Position numbers and translations under genes: made by a program. Of a DNA stretch of 52,433 nt, positions 566 to 51,999 are shown piece after piece. Each line of letters starts with the position of its first letter. Position 1 is the stretch's first letter. The notes below the pieces were generated by a model. That model was not told the DNA's origin. It searched no databases and saw only the letters and a list, made by a program, of their open reading frames with translations. Source of the stretch: Escherichia virus TH23; the sequence record MT446397.1; one strand, given 5' to 3'.

Positions 566-1684
566 TCATAATTCAAATCCACCTAGAGCATCAGTATCAA
601 CTTCGGAGTCAATTTGCCCGACCAGATAGGAACTAATCTCCGTTTCCTGTGGAGCAACCTGTACAGCATCCGAATTCAACCATGCGTTAATCCACGGAAT
701 CGGGTTAGTTGCACCTTTGAATGGAGCATCTAATCCAACTGCTTGCATACGAATATTCGTGATATATTCCACATACCCGCACAGAATTTGCTTGTTTAAG
801 CCAATCATGGAGCCATCTTTGAACAGATAATCGGCCCAATCTTTCTCTTGTTGAGCAGCATCTTCGAACAATTTCTGGCACTCTTCACGGCATTCTTGGG
901 CAATTTCACCCATTTCTGGGTCATCTTTACCACTCGCAAGAATATTCAACATGTGCTGAGTTCCGGTCAAATGGAGTGCTTCATCTCGTGCAATCAGTCG
1001 AATAATCTTGGCATTTCCTTCCATTAACTTGCGTTCAGCGAAGGCAAATGAGCAAGCAAAACTAACATAGAAGCGAATTGCTTCAAGTGCGTTGATAGAC
1101 ATGAGGCATAAATAGAGCTTCCTCTTCAACTCACGAAGACTAATTTCATGACCAGCATGGTTCCCTTCTCCGAACAATTGCCATAATGCAGTGAGTTGTT
1201 GAAGCTCGTCATAATATTGGGAGATGCCAATTGCTCGTGCTTTGATATGCTCGTTAGTTACAATTTCATCAAAGATAATGCTTGGGTCTGTAACGATGTT
1301 TCGAATAATGTGGGTGTAAGAACGTGAATGGATAGTCTCGGAGAAAGACCAAGTTTCAATCCAAGTTTCAAGCTCAGGAATGCTCACGATTGGGAGCAAA
1401 ACTGTGTTAGGTCCACGTCCCTGAATGGAGTCCAGAAGGATTTGATAGCGCAAATTACTGGTGAAAATGTGCTGTTCGTTTGGTGGAAGCTTCTGGTAAT
1501 CAATGCGGTCTTGTGAAACATCTACCTCTTCCGGTCTCCAGAAGAATGACAATTGTTTCTCAATCAACTTCTCGAATATGCCATACTTCTGTTGGTCATA
1601 GCGAGCAACGTTGACGTTCTGACCAAAGAACATTGGTTCTAATAGTTGGTTATTCTTGGTTTGTGAAAAGGTAGTGTAAGACAT
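566..1684 (-). CDS. nrdB: Ribonucleotide reductase class Ia beta subunit (NrdB), very close to E. coli NrdB
   Basis: 372-aa ORF nearly colinear with E. coli NrdB as recalled ([11 protein letters not shown], [18 protein letters not shown], [38 protein letters not shown], C-terminal [15 protein letters not shown]). Two-nt gap to the upstream gene. Confidence 0.93.
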
Positions 1685-1686
1685 TA

Positions 1687-2247
1687 TTATTTATTTCCTA
1701 AATACTTATAAAATTTATGTCCACCATAGGTTCCTCTTCCAACAACTCTTTTGAAATTACATTTCTCTGTAGCTGTGCAGAAGTGGGTGGCATCGGTTAC
1801 ATCTGGGGCATCCAACAATGCGAAGCTAATTGCCACATTCATGGCGTCCCAAACCTGTTTTGATTCGGTCTTCCAATTTGTTTTAACTATGTTCTTCCAC
1901 TGAGCATTCTTCTTCTTTGCTTCTCTTGTCCAAGCAAACTGGTTGCGTTGATATACTACATCGCAAACGGTGTTAGCGAATGGCTTCCCGAATTTGATTC
2001 GATTACGGACGACATTAGCTACCAGAATCTTTCCATGTTTGCTTTCTCCACGAGCTTCAAACCAAATTACTTTGGCATAGCATTCTATATCTTTGCGTTG
2101 AGAAATAGATAGTTTCGGATTTCCATTTAAATAGGATTGACTTGCAAAATCTGTAATAGTGGCGTTCACTGCCCCAGCCGAAGCTGGGACATTTGCGTGA
2201 AACAGACTTACCAACAGAAATGCAAGAACTTGTGCTGAGGGCATCAT
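1687..2247 (-). CDS. SleB/Hydrolase_2-like cell-wall hydrolase with N-terminal signal peptide (endolysin candidate)
   Basis: 186 aa; hydrophobic N-terminus [26 protein letters not shown]; WFEARGES...VANVVRNR...QF.AW...ATHF motifs recalled from SleB-type hydrolases; directly downstream of a holin. Confidence 0.55.
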
Positions 2248-2262
2248 AGTTCCTTGTTTGCA

Positions 2263-2604
2263 TTATTTGGCCTTCTTAAACCAATTGAGTGGGTTGAGTT
2301 GTTTGATTGCAGCAGTGAAGCAATCTCGAATTGTGGTAATGATTAGGTTAGCCCCAATCAAACCAATCACCATTGCAGCGATTGTGGCATAACGTGGTTC
2401 ATCTTTGAATATGTCCACGAAGCCAGGGAGGGAGAAAACAAACGTACCAATAACCACACAAAGCAGAGCATCGAGAATTGCTTTCAGCAAGCCTTCCTTT
2501 TCATATGCCCCACGAATGAGTGCAGTCAATCCAGCCAGGAGTCCATGAAGAACTCCATACTGGTGCATTGCTTCCCAAATCATCTGGAAAGTTTGTCTAT
2601 CCAT
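2263..2604 (-). CDS. Holin, lambda S-like (three predicted transmembrane segments)
   Basis: 113 aa; three hydrophobic helices; ALIRGAYEKEG...ILDALLCVVIG resembles lambda S AYLRGRYNGG...IDATMCAII (from memory); charged C-terminal tail. Confidence 0.6.
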   Translation of the reverse strand: MDRQTFQMIWEAMHQYGVLHGLLAGLTALIRGAYEKEGLLKAILDALLCVVIGTFVFSLPGFVDIFKDEPRYATIAAMVIGLIGANLIITTIRDCFTAAIKQLNPLNWFKKAK

Positions 2605-7716: not shown

Positions 7717-8871
7717 TTATGGTGTTTCAGTGAAAATTACAGATGCAGTTGTAGCTTCCGCTTTCTTATCAATGTCCAGTTCGATTGTAGCAATTCCAGT
7801 AGGACTTGCAGAAGTACCAATGAACAATGAATCAACCTGAACACCATTAGTGGCATCCATGATAGGCTTGAAACATTCTGACCAGATAACAGAATCACCT
7901 GGGTTCAGGGAGTTGATGTAATCCATCATAGCTGTTTGTAACTGACGGGCAGCATCATTGGAACTAATGTTAGAACCAGGGCGACGCTTGAATGTACCAG
8001 TTACATAAATGATTTCATCTTCTGGACGACTGAACTTAACTTCGTGTGGATAACCTTTACTGTCATAAATAGACACAGATGTAGTCCCATGAGTTGGGAC
8101 ACCGCCCGTTTTGGAAGAGTAGATTCGACGAGCAATTTCGTCTTCTGTTCCACCCTCTACGACAACAAAGACTGTACCCGAAGGCTGAGTCCCAATAGGA
8201 GCGCCGGTATCATTATCACGAATACGAAGGTAAGATAGATTAAGGTCAGCGAGTGCAGCGTAAATAGCTTCAACAAAGGCCGAACCGCTGTGCGCAGTAG
8301 TCCTGTCACGGCGAGTACGAAGTGCTGGGTCAGACTCATAATCCACACCTGTTTGACCAATCTCTGGGTTGTTAACTGATTCCCAACCTGCGACTGGTGT
8401 ATTGATTTTATTAACAGTGTCGGCAGCAATATAATATTCACCAGTTTCTGTGGCTACTGCCGTAACAGTTCCTGGAATAATGCAATCATATTGCGTCTCA
8501 AAATCCATTGTTCCATCACTGACAATAGAGCCAGCAGGAACAAGGGTGCCAGCCTGACCAGCACAACGGACACCAACACGAGAAGGCCAGTTGACCAATC
8601 GTTTAGTGAATGTCAGTTCACAGATGTTGTCCAGACCAATCTTCTGCATTGCACCAGGACGATAGGCATTGTATACCATTTCAGCCTGTTGCCAGCACTT
8701 AGAGATTTCTTCCGAAATGATTCCAATAACCTGACCATCTGGGCCTTCTGGACTAATGTCAAAGTTGGCACCAAACACGCTAAGGAATCTGCTATTAATG
8801 TGCGACACGATTTCTTGAACAGGCTTCTGTACGAACCCGTTTTCAGTCACGCCGTACTGGATTGTTGCCAT
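7717..8871 (-). CDS. Baseplate J-like protein
   Basis: 384 aa; size and position in a V-W-J-I gene order; general resemblance to Baseplate_J family. Confidence 0.5.
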   Translation of the reverse strand: MATIQYGVTENGFVQKPVQEIVSHINSRFLSVFGANFDISPEGPDGQVIGIISEEISKCWQQAEMVYNAYRPGAMQKIGLDNICELTFTKRLVNWPSRVGVRCAGQAGTLVPAGSIVSDGTMDFETQYDCIIPGTVTAVATETGEYYIAADTVNKINTPVAGWESVNNPEIGQTGVDYESDPALRTRRDRTTAHSGSAFVEAIYAALADLNLSYLRIRDNDTGAPIGTQPSGTVFVVVEGGTEDEIARRIYSSKTGGVPTHGTTSVSIYDSKGYPHEVKFSRPEDEIIYVTGTFKRRPGSNISSNDAARQLQTAMMDYINSLNPGDSVIWSECFKPIMDATNGVQVDSLFIGTSASPTGIATIELDIDKKAEATTASVIFTETP

Positions 8872-9218
8872 GTTAAGTAATCCTCAAGATTCCCGTAATC
8901 GGAGATAGCAATGAAAGAAATTCTCACTTCACGCTCACGGAAATCAGCATCAATGTTTATAGAGATAAGTTGTTGAACACCAGGAGTGCTTCGAATGACA
9001 TTGGCGATAGCCGCCTCAATGTCGGCAGTTCGAACAGTTTTAGTGAAGATTCCTTCAAACCAAGGAAGACCAGTGGTCGGGTCATGTTTCCATTCTCCGA
9101 ACACCGTCAGTAATCTGCACTTAACTATTTGAGCAACTTCTTCTACACCACCAACCCTGGTTGCACCACGACCAATAATAATATCGTGGTTAGAATCTAA
9201 TAGTAAGTTTCCAGCCAT
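8847..9218 (-). CDS. Baseplate wedge protein, gpW/gp25-like
   Basis: 123 aa, between spike-like and J-like genes. Confidence 0.4.
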   Translation of the reverse strand: MAGNLLLDSNHDIIIGRGATRVGGVEEVAQIVKCRLLTVFGEWKHDPTTGLPWFEGIFTKTVRTADIEAAIANVIRSTPGVQQLISINIDADFREREVRISFIAISDYGNLEDYLTWQQSSTA

Positions 9219-12414: not shown

Positions 12415-15400
12415 TTATCTACGTTCCATTGCACCATTACCCATGTTGATTGTTTGGGTAACAGTTTGACCGTTCGGAGTTGACACGGTTGCAGACGCTT
12501 GCTTGTTGTTCACAGTAGCTTTGACTTCAACGTTAACTACAGTGGCCTGTGTCTGACCATAAGACAGTCCGTTTCTGGTGAAGCCAGTTGCACCTTCTGC
12601 GATAGAATCACCCTGAGAAGCCCATTCACGGTACTTCTTGACGCGGTTCTGTGCCTGTAGAGGAACAGCATTGAGCCAGTCGGTTCCGTGTTTGTTGATA
12701 GCATCATCAACAGTTCCAGCACCATCCGTATACGCCGCCATAGCCTTCTCAGCGTCACCATTATAACGCTTGAGCATTGCATCATAGTAGTCACGACCAA
12801 CGCGAGCACGTTCTTCCAGTGAGTTATCACGGGCAGGTTTAACGCCAAATCCTGGGTCACGGGAAGTTGAATCAAGAACCTGCATACGACCTTTGGCACC
12901 AGTCGGAGATGTAACCACCGAACCATCTGCGTTCAAATCGCGGTTCCCTGACTCTTCTCCTGCGATAAAGTCATATACCGTTCTGGTAGTATCAGCTAAA
13001 CCATTTGACGCTGTACGCGCTACTCTGGCCGCATCTCCACCTGCTTCGATAAATGAACTCCCGTATGATATTGCAGCTTGCGGGACTGCGTATCCTGGCA
13101 GCACCCCAGCACGCTCCGTCTGCGCTATTCCTAGCTGTGCAATACCATCGGCATACTGTGAGTTGGCACCACGGCTTACGTTCTCCTGAGCCTCGTTCAC
13201 GCTGTAATCTGTACGGTCATAGGCGCGAGCCATGCCATCCAGACCTGCCATCTCCATAGCGCCAGCGATACGAGCCTGACTCCAGCCCCGCTCCTGACCA
13301 CGTTCACGCATTACCCGCGCTAAGGCCACAGGGTCGCCCTGTGCCGCACGAATGTCGCCAATAGTGATAAGACCACGGGTTCCCTGAACGATGTTGACAG
13401 CGCCGCTAGGGTCGCCATTCAGGAGGGTGTTATAGGCACTATGTGTGGTTCGATTGAGTCGGCCAGCTTGTTGCTGATTAAGCCCCAACATCTCCAAGCC
13501 CTGTGACATGGAAGAATATTCATTAGGGTTATTGACACCAGCGTCTAAAGAGTTTCCGTAGAAATCGTTCAGACCTTCGAGCGCCTCGTTACCAATCTGG
13601 GTAGCACCGATAGCCATACCCGCCACACGTCCCCACGGGGTCATCATGAGGGCATTCATTGCACCATTGGATAGTGAGCCTATGCTACCGCCAGCTACGC
13701 CAGCAGCCAATGCGCCACCAGCACGACCGAAGTCATCTGAGAAGCTGCCACCAGTATTCCAACCACGACCGCCACCGCCACCGGAACCACCCCCACCAAT
13801 GCCATAACTACTAGCATCGAAGGTGTCCCAGAAGCCGCCACCACCGCCACGACCACCATTGTCCCCGAAGTCGGCATCTTGTCCACGCAGCTTATTTTCT
13901 TCCTGAGCAGCGAGGATACCTTTCTTGACAGATACTGCCATCAAGTCATTGCCAGTTGTGCTGTCAGAGCCTACGGCAGAGGCTGTGGCTTCCCCAACTC
14001 CAGCACTGGTACGGTTGCCTATGAATGGGTCATCGGCTGTACCAGCAGCGGCAGAGTAGCCACGCGTTGACTTCTGCTTAACATCCTTCCAGATACCATC
14101 GCCAGTCATTGCAGCACGAGCACCTTTGATTAAATCATCATTGGACAAGTCTGAATTAGCTTCAACAAACTCTCGACCAGCATTAAGACGACCAATAGTA
14201 GAATCAATCTTATCTTTGTTGCGTTCGTACCATCCCTCGTCCTTCTCAATCCATTCCGATACCGTCTTGTCTCCGATTGTCTGAGAGAACAATGCACGAC
14301 TACGGCCAGATACAAGCATGCCAAATTGAAGTTGGTCGAGATAGTCCTTATGCTCACCAGCAGACAGGTTAGAAAACTTCTTAGCCCTTTCAGGGTTCTT
14401 GTGTTCCCAAATCGCGTCATCACCGATAAGACCATCTGGGGAATACATGAACGACGGATAATTGTCATTTGTTATTGCGCCAGCTTGCTCAATGTCGAAT
14501 CCAAATTCTTTGGCGACACGGTTACGAGCAACTTCTTCCGTCCGATGACCTGCTTCGAACATTCGTTGAGTAAATTCACTTGGCCCCTTTCCGCGTTGTA
14601 GGCCAATCTTATCAACCATTGCAGCCCAGGGTCGGTTGTATTCATTGTTACCAAGAAACGAGCCAACAGTGGAACCAGTAATGTCATATTGCTTGCGGAA
14701 GTCTAACCATTCCTGAGTGCCCTGTTCCATGTTGTGATAACGGATTGGGCCTTCTTGCGGAGCTGGCTGTGGAGCAGAGTCCAAATTAGATATAGCAATG
14801 CTCTCACGACGAGAGCGAGCAGAGTTCCAACTTGTTGGAGAATCAAGTTGTGCAATAAACTCTGTTGAAGGACTTAATTCAGTAGGTCCAGTATTTCTTA
14901 AACGTTCAGCAGGGTCAAATGTTCGAGAAACTTCTGCCTCATTATATTGGTGAGCATTCTCAAGAACACCACGAATTGATGTACCAGAGTAACGAGGGTC
15001 GTCACCAATATCTTTCTTAAGGTTATCGTAACCGGAACGAACATCTGCAATGTCTGCATAACGAGAAGCAGAGTCCAGGATTAAATCTCTGTCAGAAGAT
15101 TGAGTGCGATATGCATTCATTCCTCTTTCAGCACCACCAGAATAAACCTTTGCCGCAGATTTAACTACGCCAGAAACATCTTGGTAGAGTGTCTTGCTTG
15201 CATCAGACCAACCTGGAGAACCAGACAAGGATGCAGATAGGGAATATTCAGACTTGATACCTCCACCAAATGAACCTATCGGAAGACCAGATGCGTTAAG
15301 AGGCTGTCGAGGATGCAGAATATCTCCAACAACAGATTCAGAACCAAGTTGAGGTAATGAATCCATGTATGAAAGTTTTGGCCCCGACTTATTTCCTACA

Positions 15401-16092
15401 TTCATTGCAGATACGGCAGCAACTTCTCGGAAGTTTTGCGGCAATTCTGATTCTAAACGTTTGGCTACACGATAAACATCTCGTGCATAGCGGTCTGGGT
15501 TGTCGTATTGTTCACGGTCAACATACATGTGAGCAAGATAGCCAAATGACTTGGCAATATCTCCACGGTTTGTGGAATATTCATCCATAATATTACCGGT
15601 ATAGTGTCCGGCAAGTTCAGGCATTATATCTTGATGACCTGCAAGAGTATCTCGCATGTACGAGTTAAGCATTCCCCAATGACCTTCCGGCTTGTTGGGG
15701 TTGGCTTTAGGCATGTGCATCCAAACATCATCAGCGGATACACCAAGTTGTTCCATGTATGCGTGAACTGCTTCTACATGGTGTCCTGGTCCGTTCATTG
15801 CAGCATGGAATGTTTCAGTCAGCCCAGCGCCAGAAATCATCTGTGCTATATGTGCTGCATCTGAAATCATATCAGAAGTCCCGTATGAAGTTTCATCCTC
15901 ATACATCTGGGAATCTGGTTCGCCCAAAAGCTGTGAATTTGTTTCCATCCAACCTGACGCAGCACTTGATTCAAGTTGCTGGGCCATATCTCGTTTGCGC
16001 ATACCAGGATTGAAGGACAGACCGTACTGAGCACCCATGCCGATTAGTTCGGCCTCGGATAGCTTCATTAAATCTTTTAAGTTCTTAGCCAT
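12415..16092 (-). CDS. Tape-measure-like large tail protein with an internal YqaJ-type nuclease-like segment, a glycine-rich tract and a C-terminal lytic transglycosylase (SLT) domain
   Basis: 1225 aa between chaperone and baseplate genes; QGTQEWLDFR...YSPDGLIGDDAIWEHKNP resembles the YqaJ/lambda-exonuclease motif; GGRGGGGGF...GGGGSGGGGGRG tract; ESGNRDLNADGSVVTSPTGAKGRMQV resembles the SLT catalytic region. Confidence 0.55.
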   Translation of the reverse strand: MAKNLKDLMKLSEAELIGMGAQYGLSFNPGMRKRDMAQQLESSAASGWMETNSQLLGEPDSQMYEDETSYGTSDMISDAAHIAQMISGAGLTETFHAAMNGPGHHVEAVHAYMEQLGVSADDVWMHMPKANPNKPEGHWGMLNSYMRDTLAGHQDIMPELAGHYTGNIMDEYSTNRGDIAKSFGYLAHMYVDREQYDNPDRYARDVYRVAKRLESELPQNFREVAAVSAMNVGNKSGPKLSYMDSLPQLGSESVVGDILHPRQPLNASGLPIGSFGGGIKSEYSLSASLSGSPGWSDASKTLYQDVSGVVKSAAKVYSGGAERGMNAYRTQSSDRDLILDSASRYADIADVRSGYDNLKKDIGDDPRYSGTSIRGVLENAHQYNEAEVSRTFDPAERLRNTGPTELSPSTEFIAQLDSPTSWNSARSRRESIAISNLDSAPQPAPQEGPIRYHNMEQGTQEWLDFRKQYDITGSTVGSFLGNNEYNRPWAAMVDKIGLQRGKGPSEFTQRMFEAGHRTEEVARNRVAKEFGFDIEQAGAITNDNYPSFMYSPDGLIGDDAIWEHKNPERAKKFSNLSAGEHKDYLDQLQFGMLVSGRSRALFSQTIGDKTVSEWIEKDEGWYERNKDKIDSTIGRLNAGREFVEANSDLSNDDLIKGARAAMTGDGIWKDVKQKSTRGYSAAAGTADDPFIGNRTSAGVGEATASAVGSDSTTGNDLMAVSVKKGILAAQEENKLRGQDADFGDNGGRGGGGGFWDTFDASSYGIGGGGSGGGGGRGWNTGGSFSDDFGRAGGALAAGVAGGSIGSLSNGAMNALMMTPWGRVAGMAIGATQIGNEALEGLNDFYGNSLDAGVNNPNEYSSMSQGLEMLGLNQQQAGRLNRTTHSAYNTLLNGDPSGAVNIVQGTRGLITIGDIRAAQGDPVALARVMRERGQERGWSQARIAGAMEMAGLDGMARAYDRTDYSVNEAQENVSRGANSQYADGIAQLGIAQTERAGVLPGYAVPQAAISYGSSFIEAGGDAARVARTASNGLADTTRTVYDFIAGEESGNRDLNADGSVVTSPTGAKGRMQVLDSTSRDPGFGVKPARDNSLEERARVGRDYYDAMLKRYNGDAEKAMAAYTDGAGTVDDAINKHGTDWLNAVPLQAQNRVKKYREWASQGDSIAEGATGFTRNGLSYGQTQATVVNVEVKATVNNKQASATVSTPNGQTVTQTINMGNGAMERR

Positions 16093-41493: not shown

Positions 41494-41510
41494 TTCAATT
41501 CCAACTAATG
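41494..41510 (-). promoter_or_regulatory. Conserved intergenic motif copy (candidate phage promoter)
   Basis: Minus strand CATTAGTTGGAATTGAA, at the upstream edge of the 40.9-41.7 kb island. Confidence 0.3.
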
Positions 41511-41540
41511 TTTCAGAATTATTCCAATATTCCAAACAAA

Positions 41541-41634: not shown

Positions 41635-41650
41635 TCAAATCCCACTAATG
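41635..41650 (-). promoter_or_regulatory. Conserved intergenic motif copy (candidate phage promoter)
   Basis: Minus strand CATTAGTGGGATTTGA; shares a 14-nt identity (actaatgtttcaga) with the 41494 copy. Confidence 0.3.
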
Positions 41651-41720
41651 TTTCAGACTAAAGCCGAAGGCCAATGCGAGTACAAAACCCGCTTGGCACT
41701 TCGAAGAAACCCGCCTGGAA

Positions 41721-42789: not shown

Positions 42790-43185
42790 TTATGCTGGAA
42801 GTTCGAAGTGCGGTGCGTCGAGGAATTTAGCCCATTTCACTGGCTTAGTGAATGAACGTTCCCATGTTCCACCCCAACGAATAACAATTCCAAGCTCCTC
42901 TGCGGCTTTGAACATGTGTTCAGCTACAATTTGGAATCGTTCAAGGTCATTCCAGTCAATTGGGTATGGTGCAATGTCCAAAGCGTTGCCTGACATGTGT
43001 CGGCTAATAGAAACTTTGGTTGCACCCTGCTTTAAAAGCTCTTGTTGACGTTCATAAGAGCGTAAACCTTCCAAAACAGTTACATCAAAAGGCATGGTTT
43101 CACATGCCCGTTTGAAAACTGCAACTAATGAAGGATTTACTCCCTTAAGTCGGTCTAAAGAACGTTGGCCGAGCTTAACATTCAT
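42790..43185 (-). CDS. Peptidase M15-family L-alanyl-D-glutamate endopeptidase (T5 Lys-like endolysin)
   Basis: 131 aa; LEGLRSYERQ, SRHMSGNALDIAP (H-x6-D) and DAPHFE zinc-ligand motifs. Confidence 0.65.
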   Translation of the reverse strand: MNVKLGQRSLDRLKGVNPSLVAVFKRACETMPFDVTVLEGLRSYERQQELLKQGATKVSISRHMSGNALDIAPYPIDWNDLERFQIVAEHMFKAAEELGIVIRWGGTWERSFTKPVKWAKFLDAPHFELPA

Positions 43186-43460: not shown

Positions 43461-43690
43461 TGAAAATTATTTCCACTAGGGTGAATGGTTAATTTGAAGG
43501 ATACTAATTCCCTATTGATTGAGGTTGTTCCTAGAACTGTTGCCTCAAACAACATGGATTTGGAAGTTTCCTTACCTACACGTTCCAAGTATTTTACAAC
43601 TCGGTCGTGAATTACTGCCCATTGGCGATATTCGCAATCGGATTCCAGCAGGTATTGAACTCCATCAATGGTAAATTCGGATGACGTCAT
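43457..43690 (-). CDS. Hypothetical protein
   Basis: 77-aa ORF. Confidence 0.3.
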   Translation of the reverse strand: MTSSEFTIDGVQYLLESDCEYRQWAVIHDRVVKYLERVGKETSKSMLFEATVLGTTSINRELVSFKLTIHPSGNNFQ

Positions 43691-44037
43691 TTAACTTCCT
43701 TACAATAGGTTGATAACAATGGAAATTTGGCATGAAAGAAGTCAATGTCACGATAAATCTGTAGCACCAAACGTTCCTCAGCGTCAACACCAACTAAGGC
43801 CAGCTTACTGCTCTGTGTATTGTAGAACACTGTTGACATTGGATTAGGATTTCCATTATCTGGAATCTCAATCCATGTACCTTCGTGCAAAGAAATTGTT
43901 GCAATGAGTGGCTGGCTCATTGTAATTGTTTCAACGGACATTTTGTACCCGCCACACTGGAAGCTGCGAACAGATGCTTCTGATTTGAATGCGAATACTC
44001 CAAACAAAATTGTGAGTGCAATGTATAAAGTTTTCAT
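43687..44037 (-). CDS. Secreted/periplasmic small protein (signal peptide)
   Basis: 116 aa; MKTLYIALTILFGVFAFKSEA signal-peptide-like N-terminus. Confidence 0.35.
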   Translation of the reverse strand: MKTLYIALTILFGVFAFKSEASVRSFQCGGYKMSVETITMSQPLIATISLHEGTWIEIPDNGNPNPMSTVFYNTQSSKLALVGVDAEERLVLQIYRDIDFFHAKFPLLSTYCKEVK

Positions 44038-45554: not shown

Positions 45555-45572
45555 TCTCACATCCAACTAATG
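45555..45572 (-). promoter_or_regulatory. Conserved intergenic motif copy (candidate phage promoter)
   Basis: Minus strand CATTAGTTGGATGTGAGA, about 80 nt upstream of the SSB-tail gene start. Confidence 0.35.
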
Positions 45573-45731
45573 TTGAATTAATCAGGAACACTCAATGAAT
45601 GCTCCTTGTTAATTTAACGCGCCAGTTTATATTCCTGCTTGTAATAGCAGCAGGTTGGCAAAGCCTATAACAATCGTAATTATAACAACGCTAATAGTAA
45701 GTGTCAGTATTAGGTATTTAATATTCAATCC

Positions 45732-48797: not shown

Positions 48798-48814
48798 TTC
48801 ACATACAACTAATG
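48798..48814 (-). promoter_or_regulatory. Conserved intergenic motif copy (candidate phage promoter)
   Basis: Minus strand CATTAGTTGTATGTGAA. Confidence 0.3.
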
Positions 48815-48859
48815 ATAAATGAACATGCTTAATTGCAACTAACTCATCTGCCAAATAGA

Positions 48860-49715
48860 CGAATTTTGTCACAATTAAACATGCGTCATTAATTACAGGT
48901 TTACTCCCACCTTGAATGTATTTGGCACATTAAGATTGGAGCAAGCAGGTACGGAAAACCGACCATGTACAGCATAATAAAACTAATTAAATAAAGGGTT
49001 TTATCCCAATATTGTCACAATATTTACATGCGATGATAAAGCCTTCGCTTGGCTGGAAGCCAGTATTCATGCGGGTTGCAAGAATATTGGGTCAATACTG
49101 ATACAGCTATTACATGTGAAATTGGCACAAATACTGTTACAAAATTAACATGCCGGATTGGTAGACAATTGTATCTTCGAGGTGATTAGTCCTCTAACAA
49201 TTCTGCCACATTCTAACATGCCAATTTGTAGCAATATTTACATGCCATACTGTGACGCAATTGTCACAATATTTGTTGCTCAAAATCGGGGCGGGCTACG
49301 GGATTAGTTTCGCGGCTTTGCTCCGACTCTTCTCTTCTTTCGAATTAAGATAGAAAGAAAGAAGCATGTCCAAAAGTTCCAGTCTTGCCAAAGTTATCTC
49401 CCGGCTTGTGGGTGGGCCTTTATAATAGGAGATGGAGCAATATTGTCGCAATTGAACATGCTTTAGTTGAAGAACAGTTTCGAATGATAATCCTACTTCA
49501 CACATGGTTGCTGGAACTTTGTCTGGCCAAAGACAGGGAGTTCAATGATTGCCACATCATTACAACGCTGTGTGTTTAGTTGACATGCTGAAATGTTTCT
49601 AGAATGATTTCAACATGACATGCGGAATACTTCTCCGTATTCTGTTACTTCACATCCAACTAATGTCGAATATTGAAACAATATTACATGCAGCAATATT
49701 GCTTGAATATTGGGA
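48860..49715. repeat. Cluster of at least nine degenerate copies of an AT-rich 20-mer (consensus TTGTCACAATATTTACATGC), mostly one orientation, one palindromic unit TGTGACgcaattGTCACA
   Basis: Copies near 48866, 49011, 49122, 49201, 49225, 49249-49280, 49441, 49550 and 49676; related copies near 199-270 and 435-470. Confidence 0.6.
49649..49665 (-). promoter_or_regulatory. Conserved intergenic motif copy (candidate phage promoter)
   Basis: Minus strand CATTAGTTGGATGTGAA, about 75 nt downstream of the RNA polymerase terminator. Confidence 0.35.
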
Positions 49716-49782: not shown

Positions 49783-51897
49783 TTATTGACAGAAGTAGTA
49801 AGCGTGTTCGCTCATCAGAAGCTCTTCGGTTACGATGTTCTCATGATACATCTGAATGCCACCAAGTTGCTTAGACAGATTCTCGAATTGATTGTTGGTT
49901 ACGAAGATTTCAACATATGCTGCACGAATAACTTCCATCATTTTAGGAGCATCAGCTAAGCAGCAACGGAAACAATCATGGATTGAAGTAAAGCCACGAA
50001 GACCAGCTTCTTTAGCTTTGACTGCAACAGTACGAGCAACCAATGCGTCAATACCTTGAATGTAGTTAACAACGAAGGTACGTTTGAATTCCTCTTTAGT
50101 TGGATTGGACTCACGAATGGTCCAAGGCTTATTCTCCTGAATCTGACCAAAGATGACACGAGTTTGAGAGTCAACACGAATGCTGAATGCATCACAAACA
50201 TCACGAGATGGGAAGCAAGGTTTCATTACAACTTGACCATCAGTGTGCTTATATGTGATGTACTCTTTGTTGAGTTCAACACAACGAGCAAATGCAGCAT
50301 CAGCAGCTTTCTCGATGAACATGTTAATCTTAGCACCCAATGCGTTATGGATTGCTTCAACACAAAGTTCAGCAAATGCTTCGGCTTTCTCCATAGGAAT
50401 CTGGAGAGCTTCTGTCATGTATGCGGTGAAATCAGAAGAACCAGTCAATGCAGCTTTACCACCACCATATTGGATAGCCATGTATGGAGTTTTGATAAAC
50501 TTACGACCAGCTTTCGGATTCAAGAATTCATCCATAATTTCAGCGGATGGTTTCATTGAAGAACGGTCAAGCAACTTCAACAGTTCACGAAGAGATAACT
50601 GGTATGGGTCAGATGCTTTAGTCTCAGAATCAACCAGACCTGTAGCACGAGCCATTTCCATGTTACCAGCAATGAATGCCAAGTATTGGGTACCAGAACA
50701 TTTAGCATCTAAGCCAAAGCCTACACGAGAATCACACTCACCTGTAGTCTCAAACTTGAACCAATCCAGAGCCAGACGAACATAAGTGAATGGCTTAGAA
50801 GGACGCTCACCTTTAGGCATGTTCAGCATACGAGCCAAAGAACCAGCAGGATTCTGTGCAACATAAGTTAAACGTTTTGCAGAAGTCCAGTCTCCACCAG
50901 CAATATCTTCCAGCTCAAGCATGAACATGTTGTATGCCAGAGTTGTTGAGCCATCATCATTAAACTTGCTCACAGTGTTCTCAACATTGTGGGAATACAG
51001 GCAACGAGCAAAGTCGGATGATTGTGGGTTAGGACCAGCACATGCTACATGATACAAACGACCACGGTTATCAGCAAAGTAGTCAGAGAACAGAGTGTCC
51101 TGCCCAACCATTGCTACAGCATTGTTCCAAACATGGAGTTCAGTCTGGATTGCTTCTGGCATCTGTAAGCCACCAAAGGTACGTTGTTCTAACATGGAAG
51201 AGATAACCTTAACCATTGTTGCATCAACGTGATATTCAGTATCTTGCAGGAATTCGATTGCAGCTTTCAGAGTCTTGGATGGCTTAACTTTGCCACCTTT
51301 AACGAAAGGCTTGCGACGAGATTCAGTTGTTACACGCTCAGTGAATGGAACTGAGGTATCTTTGGTTGTAACCAGCTCAACCCATGCATCAGTCATCTGG
51401 AACGATTTGTCCTCGTTCATGGTGATGAAACCGAAGTGCTTAGCTAAACCAATGAGGTTGATAGCTGGGTCAACATAGTGCATTGCTTTCAGGTCGTTGT
51501 TATAACGGTTGGCATCAGCAATAGAAGCAGAAGCCAGCTCGACCATTGCAATGGCTGGGACAACATCATCACGAGTGAATGACGTCATCATCTTGAAGAT
51601 TGCAAGAGCAGCAATAGCACAGGTCTGAGGCTGCATGTAATTCTGTTTCTCTTTGGCACGGTATACCAGAGCCGTGATAGCAGGGACAACGGATTTGATA
51701 GTTTGAGTTGAGATAGTTGTCATTTTGCGAGTCTCCAAGTTAGTTTCGGTTTTAGTTTCGGATTGTGTAGCAGCAGTGATTTCGTCAACCATTTGGTTGC
51801 AACGGTCCATCGTATCAAGCACGTCTTTCCAACCGTGGCCTTCTTCTTTTAAGCGAGCGCCATCAGCAGCCAGTGCGCGATATTCTTCGTTAGTCAT
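49783..51897 (-). CDS. Single-subunit T7-like DNA-dependent RNA polymerase (small, 704 aa)
   Basis: Motif A FGLDAKCSGTQYLAF (T7 FDGSCSGIQHF), motif B RKFIKTPYMAIQYGGG (T7 RSVTKRSVMTLAYGS), motif C FTSIHDCF...ADAPKM (T7 ALIHDSF...ADAANL); GGAG Shine-Dalgarno. Confidence 0.85.
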   Translation of the reverse strand: MTNEEYRALAADGARLKEEGHGWKDVLDTMDRCNQMVDEITAATQSETKTETNLETRKMTTISTQTIKSVVPAITALVYRAKEKQNYMQPQTCAIAALAIFKMMTSFTRDDVVPAIAMVELASASIADANRYNNDLKAMHYVDPAINLIGLAKHFGFITMNEDKSFQMTDAWVELVTTKDTSVPFTERVTTESRRKPFVKGGKVKPSKTLKAAIEFLQDTEYHVDATMVKVISSMLEQRTFGGLQMPEAIQTELHVWNNAVAMVGQDTLFSDYFADNRGRLYHVACAGPNPQSSDFARCLYSHNVENTVSKFNDDGSTTLAYNMFMLELEDIAGGDWTSAKRLTYVAQNPAGSLARMLNMPKGERPSKPFTYVRLALDWFKFETTGECDSRVGFGLDAKCSGTQYLAFIAGNMEMARATGLVDSETKASDPYQLSLRELLKLLDRSSMKPSAEIMDEFLNPKAGRKFIKTPYMAIQYGGGKAALTGSSDFTAYMTEALQIPMEKAEAFAELCVEAIHNALGAKINMFIEKAADAAFARCVELNKEYITYKHTDGQVVMKPCFPSRDVCDAFSIRVDSQTRVIFGQIQENKPWTIRESNPTKEEFKRTFVVNYIQGIDALVARTVAVKAKEAGLRGFTSIHDCFRCCLADAPKMMEVIRAAYVEIFVTNNQFENLSKQLGGIQMYHENIVTEELLMSEHAYYFCQ

Positions 51898-51959: not shown

Positions 51960-51977
51960 ATCACAACCAACTAATGG
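51960..51977 (-). promoter_or_regulatory. Conserved intergenic motif copy (candidate promoter), upstream of the RNA polymerase gene
   Basis: Minus strand CCATTAGTTGGTTGTGAT, about 70 nt upstream of the polymerase ATG. Confidence 0.3.
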
Positions 51978-51999
51978 TAAGGCTAGCTCGTTACAACAG

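Follow-up and report, generated by a model that had tools for sequence, protein, structure and literature searches.

Lysis genes at three loci and two putative endolysins in Escherichia virus TH23, a phiEcoM-GJ1-like member of the Chaseviridae

In phages T7 and T4 the genes for the holin, the wall hydrolase and the spanins belong to separate transcription units. The T7 hydrolase, gp3.5, is encoded among the DNA-metabolism genes and the holin gene follows the tail-fibre gene; this phage relies on one amidase, which is also a regulator of T7 RNA polymerase, and an internal virion protein bears a transglycosylase domain for entry. Other phages export their endolysins, namely, the SAR endolysins P1 Lyz (with the holin LydA), phage 21 R and phiKMV gp45, as well as the secreted Lys44 of Oenococcus phage fOg44. 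These enzymes are exported through Sec before holin triggering, and their activation is coupled to membrane depolarisation. In phage P1, a holin and an exported endolysin can suffice alone.

The closest described systems are those of relatives of the phage analysed here. First, phiEcoM-GJ1 has orthologues in the same positions, annotated as endolysin (gp21, an M15 protein with 98.5% identity), Rz-like spanin (gp31, the i-spanin orthologue), holin (gp73) and endolysin (gp74), and its spanins are listed by Kongari et al. Second, a holin and two endolysins are given in Table 2 of the ST32 report, as found here. Third, the PP101 paper characterises this phage group by a holin-SAR endolysin module, naming only two genes. 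The name given to the M15 protein by Center for Phage Technology annotators reflects its activity and not an endolysin role, and they left the spanin pair of Mangalitsa as hypothetical; the Mangalitsa genome announcement leaves lysis unmentioned. The 'Chaseviridae endolysin' of Pantoea phage PA1 was rejected as a comparator, since it is an unrelated 217-aa lysozyme-like enzyme. The literature found on these relatives does not discuss why two enzymes are present, and no genetic, biochemical or expression data on Chaseviridae lysis genes were found in the literature searched.

Genome comparison identified the window, that is, the whole 52,433-nucleotide stretch of DNA that was analysed, as a phiEcoM-GJ1-like member of the Chaseviridae, whose own record was deposited unannotated. 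A sequence-only reading had proposed that its lysis functions are split across three loci with two different wall-degrading enzymes, and all the coordinates given there are real open reading frames on the minus strand. Profile matches bear out the three loci, namely, a holin with a SleB-like hydrolase (1687..2604), a spanin pair (37528..37900) and an M15 peptidase (42790..43185), and the two peptidoglycan-degrading enzymes, SleB-like Hydrolase_2 and M15 peptidase, are unrelated. The E-values for these family matches are far outside the chance range. The gene calls are right, but the arrangement is already known, as it is annotated in phiEcoM-GJ1, ST32, PP101 and 4HA13; compared with the annotated lysis genes of phiEcoM-GJ1, ST32, PP101/PM1 and 4HA13, those of this phage show no structural difference.

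The holin gene (2263..2604, minus strand) encodes a 113-aa predicted class I holin of the lambda S family, as indicated by Pfam PF05106 Phage_holin_3_1 (37.4 bits against a cut-off of 23.8, E 3.6e-9) and by PHROG 126 holin/anti-holin (3.3e-19), and its start codon overlaps the stop codon of the tail-fibre assembly gene. Lambda S-type class I holins have three transmembrane helices and a charged C-terminal tail. Hydropathy analysis revealed two strong segments, at about residues 37-67 and 71-93, and a weak one at about residues 18-30, with a basic C-terminal tail, KQLNPLNWFKKAK; in the record of the 4HA13 orthologue, TMHMM gives two helices and Phobius three. Inspection for a dual start, which in this family yields an antiholin carrying one more positive charge, located both Met1 and Met8, with an extension, MDRQTFQ, of net charge zero, and no clear ribosome-binding site in the sequence before Met8. 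The PM1 orthologue shares 72% identity and occupies the same position.

Immediately beside the holin gene lies that of the SleB-like peptidoglycan hydrolase (1687..2247, minus strand; 186 aa). The protein matches PF07486 Hydrolase_2 (SleB/CwlJ; E 8.8e-16, 58.8 bits against a cut-off of 27) and the PHROG 938 endolysin family (4e-20), with a weak match to the Bacillus SleB structures 4F55 and 4FET. Its E64-A-R-G-E68 motif aligns with the G-E-S-R-G-E catalytic region of B. cereus/anthracis SleB and is invariant in an alignment of SleB-like orthologues (n=7), and the enzyme is presumably a lytic transglycosylase. Two pairs of cysteines, Cys56/Cys95 and Cys157/Cys163, are lost only as pairs across the orthologues, a pattern that fits periplasmic disulfides. 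Carltongylesvirus, Sabourvirus, Suwonvirus, Faunusvirus and Loessnervirus all have the two genes side by side where the late operon ends, and among the Chaseviridae records compared the SleB-like gene is the only hydrolase gene retained family-wide. A scan for sigma-70 promoters and terminators around the late cassette gave results no richer than those from shuffled sequence.

The first 26 codons of the SleB-like gene (2170..2247, minus strand) specify a putative Sec-type export signal, consisting of an n-region and a 10-residue apolar core, followed by P-A-S-A-G-A. A SAR domain is recognised as a weakly hydrophobic spanning segment of about 18-20 residues, rich in Gly, Ala, Ser and Thr, and devoid of a signal-peptidase site. 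Relatives' SleB-like genes carry the annotation 'SAR endolysin', but SAR endolysins have a T4-lysozyme-like fold rather than the SleB/Hydrolase_2 fold seen here, and their anchors differ from the apolar runs of the 11 phage SleB-like proteins compared, which are only 8-15 residues long (10 in this phage) and lead into a conserved small-x-small motif. The 19-residue Kyte-Doolittle maximum of this N-terminus is 1.59. In the alignment A22, S23 and G25 are invariant and (A/V)-G-(A/T) is found in every orthologue, and the conserved P-A-S-(A/V)-G-(A/T) is compatible with a signal peptidase I site. Judged by these features, the N-terminus resembles a cleaved signal peptide more closely than it does a releasable SAR anchor, although either may apply.

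The overlapped pair at 37528..37900 had been called only spanin-like, and formal prediction now supports spanins, with a transmembrane domain, a lipobox and PHROG spanin families. The i-spanin (37664..37900, minus strand; 78 aa) has an N-terminal transmembrane helix, with a 19-residue hydropathy maximum of 2.46 within residues 1-27, a charged remainder predicted to form a periplasmic domain, and a match to the PHROG 1026 Rz-like spanins (6e-20). The o-spanin (37528..37740, minus strand; 70 aa), MFRKKCLAVLIAMSIVSC, is read from an internal ATG and not as the 115-aa TTG reading frame; it matches PHROG 1275 Rz-like spanin (2.3e-18) and starts with the lipoprotein signal MFRKKCLAVLIAMSIVS-C18-S, in which the lipobox is IVSC (I-V-S-C18) and position +2 is occupied by Ser and not by Asp. 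The two genes share a 77-nt overlap in different frames, whereas they abut in 4HA13 and Faunus. Among the o-spanin orthologues, those of Carltongylesvirus relatives, 4HA13 and Faunus have an evident lipoprotein-type signal with a terminal Cys, and that of Y2 has a less canonical one; for PM1 the start codon is ambiguous.

The spanin and M15 genes lie downstream of motifs that resemble phage promoters. The motif AACATTAGTTGGA (45562..45574, minus strand), upstream of the transcription unit that holds the M15 gene, reproduces exactly the promoter core annotated in the phiEcoM-GJ1 GenBank record, and a version with two mismatches (39543..39555, minus strand) is the nearest one upstream of a tRNA-like element and the spanin pair. 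Nine matches to this motif, identified as consensus matches only, fall on the coding strand, and eight of the nine are in the 39.5-52 kb region; the opposite strand has none. Rfam gave no match in the window, the tRNA called by ARAGORN included.

The M15 gene (42790..43185, minus strand) encodes a 131-aa predicted M15_C L-alanyl-D-glutamate peptidase. The assignment draws on PF13539 Peptidase_M15_4 (E 3.9e-9, 37.4 bits against a cut-off of 25), PHROG 465 endolysin (5.4e-55) and structural relatives, namely 23RI (5.8e-24), 8Q2G (1.5e-23) and T5 EndoT5 (2MXZ, 1.6e-19), together with ChiX; the M15_C family in question is that of the T5 and RB49 endolysins. The zinc-ligand and catalytic motifs are intact, with SRH63MSGNALD70 providing H63-x6-D70, D123-A-P-H126 providing D123-x-x-H126, and W103GGTW107; the C-terminal D-x-P-H aligns with that of 23RI. 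The role of a conserved Trp near the M15_C active site has been described (PMC10487532), and the phiEcoM-GJ1 protein was included in a published M15_C alignment. Hydropathy analysis detected no hydrophobic segment in the peptidase. Its best reading is that of a cytoplasmic L-Ala-D-Glu peptidase acting as a second endolysin, as these sequence features suggest.

The M15 gene belongs to the early/middle genes, with SSB on one side and primase/helicase on the other, and lies just upstream of an ArdA-like gene. It is not in the lysis cassette, the holin being about 40 kb away. No second holin was recognised beside it: the proteins encoded next to it (91, 77 and 96 aa) lack hydrophobic segments and typical holin transmembrane segments, and the 116-aa protein encoded upstream has only a signal-peptide-like N-terminus.

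A transglycosylase domain had been noted in the tape-measure protein, and Pfam agrees, with SLT (PF01464) detected at residues 1060-1136 (12685..12915, minus strand; 29.1 bits against a cut-off of 21.3, E 7.9e-7) of a 1225-aa tape-measure-like protein (gene 12415..16092), a long protein encoded between tail and baseplate genes; residues 1030-1200 give PHROG endolysin/transglycosylase matches. This domain presumably acts at entry and outside terminal lysis. The orthologue in 4HA13 was found in virions as the tape measure protein.

Small M15 peptidases are tail-associated lysins in some phages. The M15 protein could likewise be a virion-associated enzyme that pierces the wall at DNA injection, a possibility already raised by the sequence-only reading, but its gene is surrounded by early genes of non-structural function, an SLT domain for entry is already available in the tape measure, and in the sister subfamily Nefertitivirinae the peptidase gene forms part of the lysis cassette. 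The M15 protein is also missing from the 15 proteins listed with at least 50% coverage in 4HA13 virions, which is weak evidence; a low-copy virion M15 could be missed by that list. A virion role appears very improbable.

The distribution of these genes bears on what the peptidase does. One set of 72 records (37 from Escherichia, 22 from Erwinia, 8 from Yersinia, 2 from Pantoea, and others) has both the M15 gene and a member of the exported SleB-like clade; three Proteus records with the SleB-like gene are outside the genomes examined. The early slot, with the order SSB ... hydrolase, small reading frame, ArdA, is syntenic across five Cleopatravirinae genera, all those sampled. In Pectobacterium phage PM1 this slot holds a CHAP/TIGR02594 hydrolase instead of M15, a type that adjoins holins or Rz genes in other phages, and tblastn detected no M15 homologue anywhere in the PM1 genome. 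In Nefertitivirinae (pAh6-C, pAh6.2TG, SppYZU05 and seven more records), an M15_4 or M15_3 peptidase gene is found directly upstream of the signal-bearing SleB-like gene in a single late cassette, where it follows the tail-fibre genes and has genes for membrane proteins as neighbours.

These observations can be set against the idea that only one of the enzymes is an endolysin, with the holin, an exported (SAR) SleB-like enzyme and the spanins lysing the cell, and M15 mainly regulating the T7-like RNA polymerase, as gp3.5 does, or acting on cytoplasmic wall precursors. This phage has in common with T7 a T7-like RNA polymerase and a replication module, and the position of the M15 gene resembles that of T7 gene 3.5, being early/middle, close to SSB and primase/helicase and preceded by a phage-type promoter motif; the single T7 amidase differs from the M15 peptidase plus second, exported enzyme of this phage. 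Of the two enzymes it is the SleB-like one that is universal, the PP101 module has two genes, and, because a holin and an exported endolysin of the P1 type can suffice, M15 may be dispensable. However, the slot is occupied by unrelated folds (M15_C and CHAP), which points to selection on the ability to cut the wall and not on a particular protein-protein contact, and since an unrelated fold can replace M15, we rate a gp3.5-like regulatory role as low. The cassette position of the Nefertitivirinae peptidase, the intact metal-binding and catalytic motifs and the kinship with the T5 and RB49 endolysins likewise speak against this explanation, which we consider rather unlikely. A role for the early-region peptidase outside terminal lysis, as first suggested, is disfavoured on account of its endolysin family, the synteny of its slot, the Nefertitivirinae cassette and the phenotype of the relative Tiny, for which no rounding of cells before lysis was reported; a second, non-lytic role besides lysis is possible.

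A similar pair of enzymes is found in T5-like phages (Demerecviridae), which pair an M15 L-Ala-D-Glu peptidase of the cytoplasm with a small Hydrolase_2 protein bearing a Sec signal, and Guzel et al. (2024) remarked on this pair as unexplained. The arrangement mirrors that of the phage analysed here, with M15 next to the only holin, and the SleB-like gene, which carries the signal, distant among early genes. The T5-like SleB protein lacks a linker of about 25 residues (FASQSYLNG) and the second Cys pair, both of which are present in this phage, and the T5-like holin is of a different type.

The T5-like order could mean that M15 is the true endolysin, freed by a large-hole holin, and the SleB-like protein an auxiliary periplasmic factor for wall remodelling or superinfection protection. 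The lambda S family forms large holes, which fits release of a cytoplasmic enzyme and is the kind of holin such release needs, and reviews take the M15 protein of MLP1 as the MLP1 endolysin. Against this stand the adjacency of the holin and SleB-like genes, kept in every Cleopatravirinae genus examined, the family-wide retention of the SleB-like protein, unique among the hydrolases, and its match to PHROG endolysin families; the alternative periplasmic function is without direct support. We therefore regard this assignment of the enzymes as improbable.

The reading we prefer, to which we give a probability of roughly 0.55, is a complete, canonical Gram-negative holin-endolysin-spanin system whose genes occupy different transcription units and which would have two endolysins, an exported glycan-cleaving enzyme and a cytoplasmic peptidase. 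It builds on gene identities, export-signal features, synteny and distribution, from which we infer timing, latency, enzyme co-operation and bond specificity. Early/middle units with the phage-type promoter motif would produce the M15 peptidase and the i- and o-spanins, and the peptidase would build up harmlessly in the cytoplasm, the spanins forming a complex that spans the periplasm. The holin, of the lambda S type, and the SleB-like enzyme would come from the 3' end of the late operon. The SleB-like enzyme would be exported via Sec and would remain latent in the envelope, whether tethered to the membrane as a SAR-like protein or soluble yet inactive. Holin triggering would depolarise the membrane and open large holes, upon which the SleB-like enzyme would become active and M15 would escape. 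Together, both enzymes would cut glycan and peptide-stem bonds, and the spanins, once freed, would disrupt the outer membrane.

A stronger version of this model holds that Chaseviridae and, convergently, T5-like phages need an obligate two-compartment pair. In it, the SleB-like enzyme has a cleaved signal and is latent and soluble in the periplasm, and the cytoplasmic peptidase is swappable (M15_C, M15_A or CHAP), its gene being mobile between early and late units. This proposal is tentative, and we hold it to be doubtful though conceivable. If true, it would mean that an endolysin is exported in advance and stays soluble and latent, a form of lysis control undescribed for phages of Gram-negative hosts.

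For this genome alone the significance is little, as the lysis system is already annotated in the GenBank records of relatives and in papers on them. Reviews and annotations differ on which gene is 'the endolysin', which matters for enzybiotic mining. The wider pattern, an exported SleB-like enzyme with a replaceable cytoplasmic peptidase across the family, mirrored in T5-like phages, poses a modest but testable lysis question, namely, why two enzymes are kept, which of them is rate-limiting, and how the exported hydrolase is silenced until the holin fires.

Over its first 6 kb and over 36.4-44.1 kb, the window matches Escherichia virus TH33 (MT446406, a record that carries no annotation) at 100% identity and MLP1, PYps3T, phiEcoM-GJ1 and ST32 at 88-94%; all five phages belong to the Chaseviridae, subfamily Cleopatravirinae. 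Every long ORF lies on the minus strand, and transcription therefore runs from high to low coordinates, in the following order. First, the RNA polymerase gene (51897..49783) is followed by small early genes, the M15 peptidase gene (43185..42790) and an ArdA-like gene. Second, beyond a tRNA-like element comes the spanin pair (37900..37528), and then the thymidylate synthase gene, T7-like replication genes, the terminase gene and structural genes. Third, the tape-measure-like gene (16092..12415) precedes baseplate, fibre and tail-fibre assembly genes, the holin gene (2604..2263), the SleB-like gene (2247..1687) and, last, a class Ia ribonucleotide reductase beta-subunit gene (566..1684, minus strand). 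The latter stands by itself at the extreme end of the late operon, beyond the lysis cassette, with no window ORF long enough for the alpha subunit. Among relatives, it was found in the Carltongylesvirus phages that were examined (PYps3T, BSBP01, ST32), and 4HA13, PM1, Faunus and Berlingot have none annotated behind the lysis cassette.

The sequence-only reading had distributed the lysis functions over three loci with two wall-degrading enzymes, and all of its gene calls hold. The holin matches Pfam Phage_holin_3_1, the lambda S family, above threshold, as well as PHROG 126, and the neighbouring 186-aa protein matches Hydrolase_2 (SleB/CwlJ; 8.8e-16), its E-x-R-G-E catalytic region aligning with Bacillus SleB structures. 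In each of the five sampled Cleopatravirinae genera the late operon ends with this cassette. The 131-aa early protein is an M15 peptidase, with a PF13539 match, PHROG 465 at 5.4e-55, both the H-x6-D and D-x-x-H motifs, and T5 EndoT5 among its related solved structures. On formal feature prediction the spanin-like pair consists of a 78-aa protein with an N-terminal transmembrane helix (37664..37900) and, from an internal ATG at 37740, an overlapping ORF (37528..37740) for a 70-aa lipoprotein precursor, whose lipobox is IVSC, followed by Ser at +2, both matching PHROG 'Rz-like spanin' families (~1e-18 to 1e-20). Their orthologues in five genera conserve Cys and motif positions; the Cys-ending lipoprotein-type signal is clear in most, Y2 has a less canonical motif, and in PM1 the start codon is ambiguous. 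The two genes overlap by 77 nt in the window and abut in 4HA13 and Faunus. The 1225-aa tape-measure-like protein does carry an SLT domain (aa 1060-1136). Additionally, it contains a YqaJ-like viral recombinase/exonuclease domain (aa 461-597, ~nt 14302..14712; PF09588, E 2.9e-11, with PHROG RecE-like exonuclease matches at aa 432-640), a nuclease fold that is unusual within a tape measure.

Two stretches flanking the spanin pair, 36679..37527 and 38188..39121 (each ~0.85-0.95 kb), are without ORFs of at least 70 aa, in contrast with the tight packing elsewhere in the genome, and relatives have only very small ORFs annotated there. ARAGORN called the tRNA-like element (38081..38150, minus strand) a 70-nt 'tRNA-???' to whose anticodon no amino acid could be assigned, and Rfam at its gathering threshold gave no tRNA at this position, where the phiEcoM-GJ1 record has a 95-nt tRNA-Arg that 'may contain an intron'; ST32 is reported to carry a tRNA-Arg without an intron (ST32 paper).

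We scanned for AACATTAGTTGGA, the core of the annotated phiEcoM-GJ1 promoters, allowing up to two mismatches, and obtained nine matches on the coding strand of the window and none on the opposite strand. Eight fall within 39.5-52 kb (51966..51978, 49655..49667, 48804..48816, 45562..45574, 41640..41652, 41500..41512, 39875..39887 and 39543..39555, minus strand), and these copies, in the genome's early/middle third, often have TGTGA after them; the ninth, weaker match (7959..7971) is inside a gene. One copy precedes the RNA polymerase gene itself, an exact match at 45574 lies upstream of the M15 gene and the site at 39555 upstream of the spanins, while the window scan gave no match near the holin. 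This distribution supports what we infer for the lysis genes, namely, that they would belong to separate temporal classes. T4 and T7 are familiar examples of phages with dispersed lysis genes.

Measured in 11 phage SleB-like proteins, the longest apolar stretch covers 8-15 residues and precedes a small-x-small motif, and P-A-S-(A/V)-G-(A/T) is nearly invariant across the Cleopatravirinae. As predicted from these sequences, the N-terminus has the textbook form of a Sec signal peptide cut by signal peptidase I, and its apolar run is shorter than would be expected of a SAR anchor that spans the membrane. 'SAR' is the published label for the enzyme of this group, and it may yet be right: the PP101 paper describes a 'holin-SAR endolysin' module in every phage of the group, and the 4HA13, Mangalitsa and DE15 annotations read 'SAR endolysin'. 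Among orthologues, Cys pairs 56/95 and 157/163 are each lost only as a unit, the first from pAh6.2TG and the second from Berlingot and the T5-like protein, a pattern that fits periplasmic disulfides and lends support to export.

Of the 80 phage records in the exported SleB-like clade, 72 also have a close M15 homologue. Synteny around the M15 slot holds across genera, in the order SSB, a few small genes, hydrolase, small ORF and ArdA. No close M15 homologue was found in Pectobacterium and Dickeya phages, and tblastn over Pectobacterium phage PM1 gave no M15 anywhere. At the equivalent map position PM1, PP101 and Okapia have a 158-aa CHAP/TIGR02594 hydrolase, which in PM1 (8426..8902) occupies the M15 slot of TH33 and whose type adjoins holins and Rz genes in other phages. 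By sequence, this is a non-orthologous replacement that would keep wall-cutting activity. RefSeq names the PM1 protein 'baseplate hub subunit and tail lysozyme', apparently a wrong name for this early-region product. That M15 is itself a virion enzyme is very improbable, given its map position and its absence from the 15 proteins listed for 4HA13 virions.

Three genes upstream of M15, a 116-aa protein (43687..44037, minus strand) of PHROG 35432, a family without known function, has a signal-peptide-like N-terminus, MKTLYIALTILFGVFAFKSEA, and may be a periplasmic early protein. Separately, PP952070.1 ('Staphylococcus phage Pel53', 53.7 kb), labelled as a Staphylococcus hyicus phage, carries a Carltongylesvirus-type SleB-like gene (74% identical) and an M15 gene (80% identical); its host assignment is probably an error or contamination.

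The late operon of the sister subfamily, Nefertitivirinae, closes with genes for two membrane proteins, an M15 peptidase (M15_4-like in pAh6-C, M15_3 in pAh6.2TG and SppYZU05) and, last, a signal-bearing SleB-like protein, the pAh6-C-type enzyme pair being adjacent in 10 records. Instead of a lambda S-type holin, two other proteins lie upstream of the two hydrolases, one of 128-134 aa with a single transmembrane domain and a coiled region, the other of 55-64 aa and amphipathic or hydrophobic (18872..19440 in L016, 1517..2070 in L017, 1051..1455 and 1769..1963 in L018, the loci compared), and the lysis membrane components thus differ between subfamilies too. T5-like phages also have both enzyme families: M15 adjoins the holin, and the early genes include that of a 149-aa SleB-like protein, whose signal reads MKAALLLVAALTFSFSSQA. 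Guzel et al. (2024) noted this pair and left it open. Together, the 72/80 co-occurrence, the CHAP replacement and the Nefertitivirinae and T5-like pairs point to a recurrent unit of an exported SleB-like enzyme and a cytoplasmic peptidase, in which, as far as sequences tell, the former is constant and the latter varies by family and map position.

The suggestion that the early peptidase has a role other than terminal lysis, with the SleB-like enzyme alone lysing the cell and M15 acting, for example, like T7 gp3.5, is unlikely, the CHAP replacement and the adjacency of both enzymes in Nefertitivirinae being the main counter-arguments; the sequence-only interpretation as a whole was partly supported. 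Reviews name M15 as the endolysin of MLP1, whose record keeps the SleB-like gene hypothetical; that M15 is the sole endolysin and the SleB-like protein auxiliary seems more doubtful still. We favor, at roughly 55%, canonical three-step lysis (holin, endolysin, spanin) with two endolysins, which would cut different bonds from two compartments. Cells infected by the close relative Tiny become more compact, with nucleoids condensed until lysis and early rounding not reported, which fits a cytoplasm-confined peptidase.

All parts of this arrangement are known and already annotated in relatives: the phiEcoM-GJ1 record labels gp21 an endolysin (M15) and gp31 an Rz-like spanin, Kongari et al. list this phage among two-component spanins, and the ORF table of the ST32 paper gives one holin and two endolysins. 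Why there are two enzymes is a question that we did not find raised in the available literature on these phages. The interest that remains lies in the family-wide pairing of the enzymes and in how the exported one would stay latent.
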